Part shown: piece by piece, positions 607 through 4,329 of the stretch
Numbering within the stretch: the first letter of the stretch is position 1
Layout of the letters: each line of letters starts with the position of its first letter
DNA from: a virus
Taxonomy: Duplodnaviria; Caudoviricetes
Length of the DNA: 52,011 nucleotides
Reading direction: 5' to 3' (one strand)
IMG/VR virus record: IMGVR_UViG_3300030372_001232
Span: 1 to 52,011 of that record
The notes under the pieces: generated by a model
Databases searched by the model: none
Seen by the model: the letters and a program-made list of their open reading frames with translations, nothing else
Told to the model about the DNA's origin: nothing
Made by a program: the position numbers and the translations under genes

Positions 607-2637
607 ATGTCACAAATTCCAAGCGAATCAAAAGCAAAAGGTAAAATAGGTTCTAAACCTATTGATGACTATCTTAGTGAACAGGTTTCTGACCCTAAGA
701 TAGCAGCTAAAGCTAAACAAACATATACTAAACAAGCTGTTCAAACTGATGAGTTAATGACAACTCCTACACAAGCTGGAGTTACTTCTGCAGGTCAAAG
801 AACAGTAAGTGGTCCAAGTGCTATTCAAGCTCAAACTGGAACTACAACAGGTGTAGCTGCTCCTAGTGCTTTAGCTCAAAGAACAATGACTGCTGCTACG
901 GTTGGAACTCCAACTGCTGCTACAGCTGCAACTCAAACTGGACTAGGTGCTTCTACTCAAGTAACAGGACAAACTAGAGGAACTGTAACTGGTGCTGCTA
1001 CGGCTGCTACAGCTAACCCTGTAACAAATGCTATTGCTCAAGCTGCTCAAGGTAATGTTAATCAACAAGCTTTAGCTGCTGCTGTTACTGGACAAAAAGC
1101 AACTGTCACTGCTCAAACTGCAAGTCTTCCTGGTAATATTCAAGCTGCTGTTACAAGCAACCCTGCTTCTGTTACTGCGGCAACTGTAAACAATCCTCCT
1201 GCTGTTAACGCACAGATAGCTTCAATACCTGCAGATACTCTTGTGTCGGGTCAGATGGAGAAACTATTAAGTGGTATTGAAACTGGAACTATACCTGTAT
1301 GGGCAAGAGGTGCAGTAGAAGCTGTAGATAAACAATTAGCACAAAGAGGAATGAGTCGTTCTTCTATTGGTAGAGATGCTTTAGTAAATGCAATAATACA
1401 AAGTGCTATTCCTATTGCACAAGCAAATGCTACACAGTTACAGCAAGCTGCCATGGTTAATCTTAATAATCAACAACAAGCAGAAGTTCTTACTAAACAA
1501 CAACAGTTTCAAGCACAATTAACTGGTGCTCAGTTCCAACAACAAGCTGCGATGCAGACTGGACAGAACACACAACAGTTATTAATGGCTAATCTTGGCA
1601 ATCAACAACAAGCTATTTTAGCTAGTGCTCAACAACAACAAGCAGTAAGATTACAAAACCTTGCAAATAATCAACAAGGTGCTGTAACAAATGCACAACT
1701 TCAACAACAAATGGAGTTAGCAGGAATGAGCAATCAACAGTCTGTTGCTCTTGCTAATGCACAAACTATAGCAGGTCTTGATGTTCTTAATTTAAATAAC
1801 AGACAACAATCTGTTATATCTAATTCTAATTTATTTAGAACTTTTGGTTTACAAAATTTAAGTAACTCTCAACAAGCTGTTATGCAAAATGCAGCTAATC
1901 TTGCAGCTCTTGATATGGCTGAGTTAAATAATAGACAACAAGCTCAAGTATTAAATGCACAATCATTTTTAAATCTTGATATGACTAACTTAAGTAATAA
2001 TCAACAAGCTGCTATACTTACTGCACAACAAAGACAACAAGCTATGTTATCTGACCAGGCTGCTGATAATGCAGCTAGACAATTTAATGCTACTAGTCAG
2101 TCACAAACAGACCAGTTTATGGCTAATCTTGCATCTACTATAAGTCAACAAAATGCAGCCCGTGCTGACGCTATGTCACAATTTAATACTACTCAAAAAA
2201 ATCAAGTAGCACAAATTAACGCTGGTAATACACTTGAAGCAGAAAGACTTGAAGAACAACTTAATACACAGATAGACCAATATAATTCTAATTTAGCTTT
2301 TCAAAAAGACCAGTTTAATATTCAAAATTCAATGGCTATAGAACAATCAAATGTTCAGTGGAGAAGGCAAACAAATACAGCAAACACAGCAGGCGTAAAC
2401 GCAGTTAATCAAGCTAACGCAATGAATGCTTTTAATTTAAGTAATCAAGGTTTATCTTTCTTATGGCAAGAGATGAGAGATGCTGCTAAATGGGAATATG
2501 AAGCATCTGAAAATGACCAAGATAGAGATGCTAAATTAGCTATTGCAGCTCTTGGTAATGAAGCAATAGATAATCAAGCAAAATTAGACAAAATGAAAAC
2601 AATAGCAAATTTTGTAATAGGTCTATTACCAGAATAA
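607..2637 (+). CDS. Gln/Asn/Ala/Thr-rich putative internal virion (ejection) protein
   Basis: 676 aa. T/A-rich N-terminal part, then many NLxNxQQA-like repeats. Lies downstream of the tail genes, at the start of the internal-protein module. Confidence 0.6.
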   Translation: MSQIPSESKAKGKIGSKPIDDYLSEQVSDPKIAAKAKQTYTKQAVQTDELMTTPTQAGVTSAGQRTVSGPSAIQAQTGTTTGVAAPSALAQRTMTAATVGTPTAATAATQTGLGASTQVTGQTRGTVTGAATAATANPVTNAIAQAAQGNVNQQALAAAVTGQKATVTAQTASLPGNIQAAVTSNPASVTAATVNNPPAVNAQIASIPADTLVSGQMEKLLSGIETGTIPVWARGAVEAVDKQLAQRGMSRSSIGRDALVNAIIQSAIPIAQANATQLQQAAMVNLNNQQQAEVLTKQQQFQAQLTGAQFQQQAAMQTGQNTQQLLMANLGNQQQAILASAQQQQAVRLQNLANNQQGAVTNAQLQQQMELAGMSNQQSVALANAQTIAGLDVLNLNNRQQSVISNSNLFRTFGLQNLSNSQQAVMQNAANLAALDMAELNNRQQAQVLNAQSFLNLDMTNLSNNQQAAILTAQQRQQAMLSDQAADNAARQFNATSQSQTDQFMANLASTISQQNAARADAMSQFNTTQKNQVAQINAGNTLEAERLEEQLNTQIDQYNSNLAFQKDQFNIQNSMAIEQSNVQWRRQTNTANTAGVNAVNQANAMNAFNLSNQGLSFLWQEMRDAAKWEYEASENDQDRDAKLAIAALGNEAIDNQAKLDKMKTIANFVIGLLPE

Positions 2638-3092
2638 TGAATGATGTAGAAGCTGCAGTTCATTTAATGTCAACTGCAAAAACTTATAAAGATATATTTA
2701 AAGGAGATGTAGAGCACATCTTACAACAAGTTTTACCACCAATAAAACTTAATCAATATAGAGTTTTTAGAAGAGGTGATATACCTTTTGCTTATACTAG
2801 TTGGGCTTTTATGAATACAGAGTCAGCTGATAAGTTTAAAAAAACTGGAATAGTAGAAGATGATAGTTGGTGGAATAACGGTAGTCATATATGGCATATG
2901 GATACAATATGTAATGATGGAAATATTTTAACATTACATAGATGGACACAAAGAAATCTTGCAGAAAAAGTTGGAGATAAGAAAAAAATAAATTGGATAA
3001 GGCTTGGACAAGATAAATTTGGTCAAACAACAGTTAAAAAAATAGGACACGCATTTACAAAAGGAGAAAAAAACTATGGGTTCAATAGTTAA
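2637..3092 (+). CDS. RTX toxin-activating lysine acyltransferase (HlyC/CyaC/TAAT family) homologue
   Basis: VLPPIKLNQYRVFRRGDIPFAYTSWAFMN aligns with HlyC VLPAIQANQYVLLTRDDYPVAYCSWANLS. WNNGSHIWHMDTI aligns with WTSGDRKWFIDWI, and WIRL with AIRV. TAATG-coupled to the upstream gene. Confidence 0.85.
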   Translation: MNDVEAAVHLMSTAKTYKDIFKGDVEHILQQVLPPIKLNQYRVFRRGDIPFAYTSWAFMNTESADKFKKTGIVEDDSWWNNGSHIWHMDTICNDGNILTLHRWTQRNLAEKVGDKKKINWIRLGQDKFGQTTVKKIGHAFTKGEKNYGFNS

Positions 3093-4329
3093 AAAAATAA
3101 AAAAGACAGTTAAAAAAGTAATTAAGAAAAACCCTATTTCTAAAATTATAAGTAAAACTGCTAAAAAAATAAAAAGGTTTGGTAGAAAAGTTTGGGAAGG
3201 TATTAAAAAAGTAGGCGGTAAAGCTATGAAAGCTTGGGGTAAAATTAGTCAAAAAATAGGACCTATCGGAACTATTGCTTTATCTTTTGCTATGCCTTAT
3301 TTACTTGGGCCTTTAAGTGGTGCGGCAGGAACTGCATGGAATAATATGGCTACTTGGTTAGGAACTCCAGCAACTGGAGCAGGTAGTGCTTTTGTAAATA
3401 CATTTAAAAATTTAGGTCTTAATGTAATGAAAGGTACTCAGTTTGTAGGTAGTACATTTAAAGGTATAACTCAAACACTAAGTAAAACTATAGGTTCTTT
3501 TGGACAAGGAGATATCGCAGGTGGATTCTCTAATTTATGGAAAGGAGCTGGAGATGTGTTCTCTGGTCGTGCAGGTTTTGGAACAGCAGATATTGCTTCA
3601 AAAGCTGTAGTAGATGCAAGTTTAGGATTAAACACTCAAGTTCAACAAGCAACAGGAACATTTTTAAGAGAAGGTGCGAGTGGTGTAGTTCAAACTGGTG
3701 GTGTTAATATGCTTAATGCTAATATTGCAAATGCTCAATCTTACAAAATAATAAGTAATGCAATGGCTAGCACAGTATCTGGATACACACCAGAAATGTC
3801 TAAGTATGTTAATACACTACAAAAGCAGTATAAACTTGATGCTTTTACTGCACATGAACATGCTATGAAAAATGGTGGTGTTATTAATATAGACCCTACC
3901 AATCAAGCAACAACTTATAATTTAGATTTTAATTCTTCTGGAGACTTTAAGTTTCAACAATCAGGTGGTCCGCCTAACGCAGGAGAATATCAATATACTG
4001 GAGATGCTAGTAAAATTAGCTTTGGTGAAACAAATCAATATGTAGGTATGAGAGGTAATCAGTATGAAATTAAAGGAGAAACTTACGGTTATGGTGATGC
4101 CCCTAAATCTGACAGTTTATTAAATAAAGGTTCTAAAGCTTTATCTGCTATGTTAAATAATGATGATAATCAAGAACTAGAAATTCCTGGTGGAGTTAAT
4201 CCAAGTTTAGACCCTTATAGTACTTTATATGGCGGAACAAATGTTGCTTCTGCAGGAGGAGGACAATTTTTAACTCAAGCACAACAACAATTTTTTGTTG
4301 AACAAGATTTAAATATAGCAAGAGGATAA
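3076..4329 (+). CDS. Putative ejection/pilot protein with Lys-rich amphipathic N-terminus and Gly-rich hydrophobic segments
   Basis: MGSIVKKIKKTVKKVIKK...KISQKIGPIGTIALSFAMPYLLG. AAGGAG RBS upstream. Overlaps the acyltransferase gene. Confidence 0.6.
   Translation: MGSIVKKIKKTVKKVIKKNPISKIISKTAKKIKRFGRKVWEGIKKVGGKAMKAWGKISQKIGPIGTIALSFAMPYLLGPLSGAAGTAWNNMATWLGTPATGAGSAFVNTFKNLGLNVMKGTQFVGSTFKGITQTLSKTIGSFGQGDIAGGFSNLWKGAGDVFSGRAGFGTADIASKAVVDASLGLNTQVQQATGTFLREGASGVVQTGGVNMLNANIANAQSYKIISNAMASTVSGYTPEMSKYVNTLQKQYKLDAFTAHEHAMKNGGVINIDPTNQATTYNLDFNSSGDFKFQQSGGPPNAGEYQYTGDASKISFGETNQYVGMRGNQYEIKGETYGYGDAPKSDSLLNKGSKALSAMLNNDDNQELEIPGGVNPSLDPYSTLYGGTNVASAGGGQFLTQAQQQFFVEQDLNIARG

Follow-up and report, generated by a model that had tools for sequence, protein, structure and literature searches.

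A Tyr-type HlyC-fold acyltransferase encoded beside Met-Gly-start tail and entry proteins in marine tailed phages: a candidate system for N-terminal lipidation of a virion protein

Introduction

What does a tailed phage do with a relative of the enzymes that activate RTX toxins? The question is raised by the viral record IMGVR_UViG_3300030372_001232 (Duplodnaviria; Caudoviricetes), the whole of which (52,011 nt, CheckV completeness 100%) is referred to here as the window. Near its start, a gene at 2637-3092 encodes a homologue of the toxin-activating acyltransferases (TAATs) HlyC, CyaC and ApxC, and this gene overlaps both of its neighbours. An earlier note on this DNA had proposed that the enzyme fatty-acylates a neighbouring ejection protein at Gly-Lys sites, so that the protein inserts into the envelope during DNA delivery. 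Here we report that the enzyme belongs to a distinct, largely phage-borne branch of its family, that its gene is coupled in many phage loci to a downstream gene whose product starts with Met-Gly (MG), and that the N-terminal Gly of this partner protein, rather than a Gly-Lys site, is the candidate acyl acceptor. The three open reading frames (ORFs) that the note described were found as it placed them, on the plus strand and overlapping (1 nt between the stop of the 676-aa gene and the ATG of the enzyme gene, 17 nt between the enzyme and partner genes). The features of the locus are:

607-2637, plus strand: 676-aa protein rich in Gln, Asn, Ala and Thr, encoded ahead of the enzyme and putatively an internal or ejection protein
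2637-3092, plus strand: 151-aa TAAT-like (HlyC/ApxC-fold) acyltransferase, Tyr-for-His variant
3061-3066, plus strand: AAGGAG, ribosome-binding site of the partner gene, located within the enzyme gene near its 3' end
3076-4329, plus strand: 417-aa partner protein, proposed acyl acceptor
4330-4638, plus strand: 102-aa basic protein, directly 3' of the partner gene in the same late string

Results

The enzyme is a HlyC-fold homologue with Tyr in place of His

In a Pfam scan at E up to 1, HlyC (PF02794) was the only family matched by the enzyme (E 1.3e-17; 64.3 bits against a cut-off of 25; profile positions 6-118 of 127), and Acetyltransf_1 (PF00583) gave no match. The enzyme was also related to ApxC (4whn) in both a phmmer comparison (E 4.8e-8) and a profile comparison (E 3.6e-14). 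A confident AlphaFold2 model (pLDDT 91.5) placed the 4whn chains at the top of a Foldseek search (E 3e-8, TMq 0.71), with GNAT-like domains next, at E ~3e-3 or weaker. Profile and structure searches together confirm the TAAT relationship that had been recognised from the sequence alone, and on the strength of the alignments and the predicted model we regard the enzyme as a genuine HlyC/ApxC-fold acyltransferase homologue. The alignment to ApxC likewise agrees with the description of a kept Asp, a kept distal Arg and a His-to-Tyr exchange. Asp89 (in WHMD; codon 2901-2903) aligns with the Asp of the ApxC FIDW motif (ApxC Asp93), the distal Arg is retained as Arg122 (codon 3000-3002), and Tyr17 (codon 2685-2687) stands in exact alignment with the His of the ApxC SPLH motif (ApxC His24, HlyC His23).

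The enzyme gene is the single PF02794 match in a six-frame search of the whole record (63.9 bits), and no RTX repeat (PF00353) is present in the record, which bears out the reported absence of an RTX toxin. Type I secretion genes had also been reported as lacking; none turned up in general Pfam and PHROG scans of those ORFs that were submitted, no family-directed search having been made.

The exchange of His for Tyr extends well beyond the window. A search of 1.84 billion cluster representatives returned 352 relatives of the enzyme at E up to 0.001, and 130 of the 150 listed representatives were aligned with the window protein and five close homologues (n = 136). The His column of this alignment holds H in 79 proteins, Y in 47 and F in 3, while the Asp column is occupied by D (115) or E (13) in 128/136; the Tyr-type proteins are short, with a median of 144 aa. 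Among 93 TAAT rows taken from viral loci (92 distinct), Tyr is the rule (Y 88, W 4, H 1), an acidic residue fills the Asp column in 90/93 (D 80, E 10, and N in 2 further rows), and Arg122 is conserved in 91/93. The Tyr state is strongly clustered on the tree (9 changes compared to ~40 in shuffles), on which a single origin of the Tyr-type enzymes is unsupported either way, the alignment being short. As judged from these columns, the His-to-Tyr exchange is a clade trait and not decay, and the active site is under selection. Because both the catalytic His and an RTX or CdiA partner are missing, the enzyme is placed, by its sequence relationships and fold, outside the canonical TAATs, in a separate Tyr-type, largely phage-borne branch of homologues with the TAAT fold.

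An active enzyme with Tyr for His appears plausible, because classical GNATs usually rely on a Tyr as their general acid and because ApxC and CdiC retain some activity when their His is lost. The available part of the CdiC paper describes residual activity for ApxC H24A and CdiC H37A, and a mechanism of direct attack in which Asp acts as the base that deprotonates the amine and His protonates the leaving thiolate of acyl carrier protein (ACP) (PMC8510554).

The enzyme gene is paired with a downstream gene starting Met-Gly

Viral loci were gathered with five Tyr-type enzyme queries and from GenBank phages; the queries P0094 and P0075 gave no viral loci. A TAAT ORF was present in 76 loci. In 75 of them it is followed by an ORF in the same orientation, and the product of this second ORF starts with MG in 69/75, behind a good ribosome-binding site. 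The window is one such case: its partner gene begins Met-Gly-Ser (3076-3084), 9 nt 3' of the AAGGAG at 3061-3066, and AAGGAG or AAGGA precedes the MG start in most related loci. When downstream proteins were clustered at 40% identity, MG starts were found in 8/10 clusters, compared to 2/99 clusters of other ORFs from the same loci. All six cultured pelagiphages that bear the enzyme have an MG-start partner.

We considered whether overlapping genes or re-initiating ribosomes might impose the MG start. This was rejected in view of the varied spacing between enzyme and partner genes, which takes ten values from -17 nt (overlap) to +11 nt (gap), and of the way in which MG tracks the enzyme among orthologues (see below). 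The upstream 676-aa protein was also set aside as the substrate, since the upstream gene varies by lineage (the 676-aa protein in the window, a minor tail protein L homologue in the group with J-type partners) and the downstream MG start does not. This comparison of gene neighbourhoods supports the downstream rather than the upstream protein as the partner of the enzyme.

The six exceptions without MG are five HTVC103P-like loci and one locus (L078) that carries the sole His-type enzyme among the 93 viral rows. In the HTVC103P-like phages, the enzyme gene lies in the replication module, and an MG-start orthologue of the 417-aa protein is encoded elsewhere in the genome. Linkage of the enzyme to virion genes is not universal. 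In HTVC103P (gp34; L002:4983-5432) and in L063-L066, the replication-module enzyme gene overlaps an ORF for a 107-aa coiled-coil-like protein.

For comparison, 79 bacterial loci of His-type enzymes were collected by a scan with alignment A3. With start calls that are crude in this set, MG starts were found in 9/74 downstream ORFs, and the third residue was G, A or S in none of them. The query P0082 found no relatives in bacterial genome contigs. The A3 relatives (L165-L244) occur in Rhodospirillales, magnetotactic bacteria and Desulfobacterota, and several His-type HlyC homologues in alignment A3 have long N-terminal extensions rich in Ala, Pro and Lys.

The partner proteins have Gly2 in common rather than a Lys

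Three kinds of partner were distinguished. The first comprises Lys-rich proteins of ~400-450 aa like that of the window, the second comprises homologues of the J-type central tail fibre (719-980 aa; phrog_31, E 8e-81; PF13550), and the third comprises proteins of 500-590 aa that belong to no known family. The J-type partners carry an extra N-terminal MG segment that is followed by a hydrophobic helix.

The N-terminus of the window partner was as the earlier note had described it, with a Lys-rich amphipathic stretch containing Gly-Lys pairs, then Gly-Pro and a hydrophobic helix. Residues 1-60 (3076-3255) contain 20 Lys and 2 Arg against a single acidic residue and form a predicted amphipathic helix, the peak helical hydrophobic moment of which (0.87) was matched by 0/1000 shuffles. 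The Gly-Lys pairs are at 48-49 and 55-56, the Gly-Pro is at 62-63, and the hydrophobic helix spans residues ~61-84 (3256-3327). Homologues of this protein start with MG in 84/88 cases, the others being two MSS starts, one truncated gene call and one chimera. Invariant positions in 28 aligned homologues are G2, K6, K14, K30, K56, K60, G62 and P63. A structure model of the 417-aa protein is of low confidence (pLDDT 44). A complex prediction for the enzyme with partner residues 2-80 scored 0.00 in two runs, made without controls and with the fold of the partner uncertain, and was weighed neither way.

Across the partner types, the position of the first Lys ranges from residue 3 to 93. Most partners do have a Lys at residue 6 or 7, but in one J-type group the first 70 residues are free of Lys. 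The suggestion of an acylated neighbour survives in part: an orphan TAAT-fold enzyme is indeed tied to virion genes, whereas Gly-Lys acceptor sites are unsupported, since Met-Gly alone is both conserved and seen to vary together with the presence of the enzyme. Because the only amine common to all partners is the alpha-amine of Gly2 after removal of Met, we moved the proposed acceptor from Gly-Lys to the N-terminus.

Met-Gly starts follow the enzyme among J-type genes

The converse survey started from the partner. A scan of IMG/VR confirmed at least 593 relatives of the J-type protein, of which the best 80 were taken; pooled J-type loci that passed the filters (core motif, at least 450 aa, at least 480 nt of upstream sequence) numbered 90, of which 70 were distinct. 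Enzyme-linked J-type genes start with MG in 56/56 loci, with a third residue of G (45), A (4), S (4), R (2) or K (1). Among the 14 enzyme-less J-type loci, 9 lack the MG start (MPF in five, MVH in two, MCS and MCP in one each). On a J-type tree made from the protein core, with the N-terminus omitted, 8-9 gains or losses of the enzyme are needed.

Several enzyme-less loci serve as natural controls. Slicky01, a Pseudoalteromonas phage, has the gene pair of the window without the enzyme, and its orthologue of the partner starts with MS. The J-type proteins of the roseophages CRP-823 and CRP-406, which also lack the enzyme, start with MI and MP and have hydrophobic N-termini; the slot of the enzyme is taken there by a DUF6950 gene (PF22262, 71-82 bits; L084:1944-2357 and L085:1857-2288). 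In two further enzyme-less loci (L148, at 2537-2989, and L150), a classical GNAT (PF00583, 22.5 bits against a cut-off of 20.7) lies between a minor tail protein L homologue and the J-type gene, and the J-type partner starts with Met-Cys. Because an acyltransferase of a different family replaces the enzyme in these two loci, chemistry on the N-terminus of the partner would seem to be the selected function.

The late gene string of the window

The nearest cultured relatives of the window are HTVC103P-type pelagiphages, and HTVC115P is ~75% identical over part of the region. The string at 607-4638 is on the same strand as the head and tail genes identified by PHROG and Pfam scans. Features of the window outside the immediate locus are:

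8826-13343: 1505-aa protein, longer than any other product of the late string
at 13327: 437-aa protein with lysozyme-type PHROG matches
at 32533: terminase (PHROG and Pfam scans)
at 34805: portal (PHROG and Pfam scans)
at 40346: major head protein (PHROG and Pfam scans)
at 41626 and 42475: tail proteins (PHROG and Pfam scans)
47503 to the window end: tail fibre genes (PHROG and Pfam scans)

Neither flanking protein of the enzyme (607-2637 and 3076-4329) matches a Pfam family above cut-off or a PHROG family. The label of an ejection-protein operon, which the string at 607-4638 had been given, is a reasonable inference from gene position, with which it fits, and it is to be read as positional. 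Homologues of the 676-aa protein sit ahead of the partner gene in HTVC115P, in HTVC103P and in the enzyme-less Slicky01. The 102-aa protein at 4330-4638 matches phrog_7595 (E 5.8e-39) and, partially, phrog_220, annotated as minor head protein and DNA pilot (E 1e-5).

A run of small, very basic proteins is encoded 3' of the partner gene (4330-6432), among them a phrog_17747 match at 5441-5644 (E 1e-33). The C-terminal end of the 1505-aa protein (residues 1316-1442) resembles a methyltransferase domain (PF13489), at 23.3 bits below the cut-off of 27. A phage-encoded Hsp20/alpha-crystallin small heat-shock protein lies at 14749-15186 (PF00011, 66 bits; phrog_432). Met-Gly starts occur in 3/65 window ORFs; besides the partner these are 15370-15807, which has a hydrophobic N-terminus, and 41381-41614, both starting MGI.

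Discussion

Proposed mechanism

In the reading that we favour, to which we give a probability of roughly 0.5, the enzyme acylates the exposed N-terminal Gly of a tail-tip or ejection protein, in analogy to the myristoylated VP4 of picornaviruses. The data above show homology, fold, conserved residues, coupled genes and an enzyme that varies together with the Met-Gly start; the catalysis, the acyl donor, the chain length, the acceptor atom, the location in the virion and the role in entry are our inference. Enzyme and partner would be synthesised together late in infection, and the host methionine aminopeptidase would cut Met1 and expose Gly2. The enzyme would bind a host acyl carrier, most likely acyl-ACP; Asp89 would serve as the base for the alpha-amine of Gly, which would attack the thioester, and Tyr17 would replace the missing His in protonating the thiolate as it departs. 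The N-acyl-glycine, the Lys-rich amphipathic helix and the hydrophobic helix would together form a membrane-insertion module in the virion. In other phages the J-type fibre would carry this module as its N-terminus, which for the HTVC111P type means the tail tip. During infection, the module would insert in the host envelope and either anchor the DNA-delivery apparatus there or open the path for the DNA, as myristoylated VP4 and mu1N do for animal viruses.

A broader version of the proposal is more tentative, and we would put it a little short of even odds. It holds that a Tyr-type offshoot of the TAATs, encoded by tailed phages that rank among the most abundant viruses of the sea, moves lipid from host acyl-ACP to the first residue of a J-type or ejection protein, as an independent counterpart of the myristoylated peptides of picornaviruses, reoviruses and polyomaviruses, and that this would be the first TAAT activity on an alpha-amine.

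Weighing the evidence

Several observations weigh against acylation of Gly2. According to the available part of the CdiC paper, every characterised TAAT acylates the epsilon-amine of an internal Lys and not an N-terminus (PMC8510554). The canonical catalytic His is absent, so that enzyme activity itself is deduced. Many of the loci are closely related, and the raw counts overstate their independence. In the HTVC103P-like phages, the enzyme gene is ~18 kb from the partner gene, among genes for single-stranded DNA-binding protein (SSB), primase and polymerase, and has Trp in the Tyr column. MG starts are also found without the enzyme, in 5/14 enzyme-less J-type loci (MGF in four and MGI in one, the latter being the cultured HTVC202P, in the genome of which PF02794 has no match), and an enzyme-bearing lineage outside the J-type family (L042) starts with MGF. 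With the trait fixed beforehand as a start with MG, 3-4 independent pairs on the J-type tree were concordant, 0 opposite and 4-5 equal (sign test, p 0.125); the significant result, 8/8 independent pairs concordant (p 0.008), came from a trait set after seeing the data (MG followed by G, A, S, T, K or R) and is provisional. Within the family of the window partner, K6, K14, K30, K56 and K60 are as invariant as Gly2, so that a Lys acceptor is conceivable there, and 2/88 homologues start with MSS (P0223 and P0267). A metagenome scan with the MSS variant P0267 found two loci, both with an MG-start partner and the enzyme upstream. Finally, the location of the window partner in the virion is backed by no family match, and its model is poor.

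The strongest competitor, though an unlikely one in our view, is conventional chemistry: the enzyme would acylate the epsilon-amine of Lys in the N-terminal helix of the partner, Gly2 being a recognition element or irrelevant. In its favour are the habits of the family, whose characterised members all act on Lys, often in Gly-Lys, as far as the accessible text of the CdiC study goes (PMC8510554), together with the two Gly-Lys pairs and five invariant Lys of the window partner and the Lys at residue 6 or 7 of most partners. It is difficult to reconcile with one enzyme-linked J-type group that has no Lys before residues 71-93 and with others that have none before 23-30; no Lys position is common to the partner types, whereas Gly2 and its neighbour track the presence of the enzyme. 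We consider it more unlikely still that the enzyme transfers a short chain to the N-terminus, for example an acetyl group from acyl-coenzyme A (acyl-CoA) in the manner of RimI, RimJ or RimL, which would protect or tune the N-terminus rather than provide a lipid anchor. The GNAT in the enzyme slot of L148 and L150 belongs to the acetyltransferase family PF00583, the next-best matches of the enzyme model are GNAT-like domains that depend on CoA or a carrier, and chain length is unreadable from sequence. The nearest relatives by sequence and fold are, however, long-chain transferases that depend on acyl-ACP, and the N-termini of the partners look membrane-active (an amphipathic plus a hydrophobic helix, or transmembrane-like), which fits a lipid better.

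Loss of catalysis is improbable. The enzyme would then persist as a dedicated chaperone or assembly factor that covers the hydrophobic or amphipathic N-terminus of its partner until virion assembly, a role suited by the missing catalytic His and by coupled, near-stoichiometric synthesis. The conservation of Tyr (88/93), of the acidic residue (90/93) and of Arg122 (91/93) would be unexpected of a pseudoenzyme, and the swap for another GNAT speaks for chemistry over binding; His-less ApxC and CdiC are, moreover, partly active, and Tyr is the acid that GNATs usually employ. Least probable of all, and very much so, is a target elsewhere, with the gene order incidental: a small molecule, a protein of the host (in its envelope or elsewhere) or the 676-aa product of the gene upstream. 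The position of the HTVC103P-like gene among early and replication genes, distant from the virion module, points in this direction, as does the counting of hlyC among abundant phage 'virulence genes' of a marine virome (listed as such, and treated as a toxin gene, in the available part of that study; PMC7003362). An MG-start partner nevertheless adjoins the enzyme in 69/75 loci across unrelated families, the enzyme co-varies with the N-terminus of the partner, and the upstream gene differs by lineage. Acylation of Gly2 remains the reading that we prefer.

Relation to known systems

The picornavirus VP4, reovirus mu1N and polyomavirus VP2 proteins are N-myristoylated at a start of Met-Gly followed by small residues, are membrane-active and are released at entry. 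Their modifying enzyme, N-myristoyltransferase (NMT), has the GNAT fold and acylates the alpha-amine of Gly. Unlike these viruses, the phage encodes its own enzyme, which has no sequence homology to NMT and would use bacterial acyl-ACP.

Compared to the RTX TAATs HlyC, CyaC and ApxC (PF02794; 4WHN), the phage enzyme is alike in homology, fold, Asp, Arg, its size of ~150 aa and the position of its gene just 5' of the presumed substrate gene. It differs in its Tyr for His, which is common to a large, mostly phage clade, in having no RTX toxin or repeat and a phage tail or entry protein as the partner, and in that its partners conserve a Gly at the N-terminus and not an internal Gly-Lys. CdiC offers a TAAT precedent outside the RTX toxins. 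As described in the part of the CdiC paper available to us, it attaches a lipid to class IV CdiA, within the receptor-binding domain, and the lipid on this cell-contact protein is proposed to insert in the outer membrane of the target cell, a similar logic of gripping an envelope; CdiC is bacterial, however, keeps the His/Asp dyad and attaches 3-hydroxydecanoate to one internal Lys (Lys1467) (PMC8510554). By analogy, we take CdiC as the nearest bacterial functional precedent and the myristoylated entry peptides of animal viruses as the nearest viral one.

The annotation of the gene is already known. GenBank labels it 'toxin-activating lysine-acyltransferase' or 'putative RTX toxin acyltransferase family protein' in HTVC115P, HTVC103P, HTVC104P, HTVC026P, HTVC111P and HTVC112P (MN698240-MN698247). 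These pelagiphage homologues are 26-59% identical to the enzyme, and HTVC115P has the same three-gene order as the window. In the accessible portion of the pelagiphage preprint, HlyC is named in one figure legend and not discussed, with no substrate or role proposed (10.1101/2019.12.14.876532). The full-text literature searched, which mostly excludes subscription journals, nowhere proposes or shows a phage TAAT that modifies a virion protein, in line with the earlier note, which was aware of no description of this use of the family. Nor did we find in that literature the conserved link between the enzyme gene and a tail or entry protein that starts with Gly, our interpretation of this link, or any phage-encoded enzyme that covalently lipidates a virion protein of a tailed phage.

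Implications

The means by which the tail tip and the ejection proteins of a phage cross the Gram-negative envelope are still debated, and the idea that they may be lipid-tagged would surprise specialists. If it is true, phage 'hlyC' genes counted as virulence or toxin genes in viromes, as in the available part of the marine study mentioned above (PMC7003362), would be a miscount. The chemistry of the TAATs would be extended, with Tyr for His and possibly an alpha-amine for Lys as the acceptor. Marine phages that are numerous and abundant worldwide (IMG/VR has at least 593 related J-type loci, and the cultured pelagiphages of the HTVC103P and HTVC111P types belong here too) would use a lipid anchor for part of the task of crossing the envelope, and would thereby have reached the same solution as animal viruses, which use the NMT of their host.

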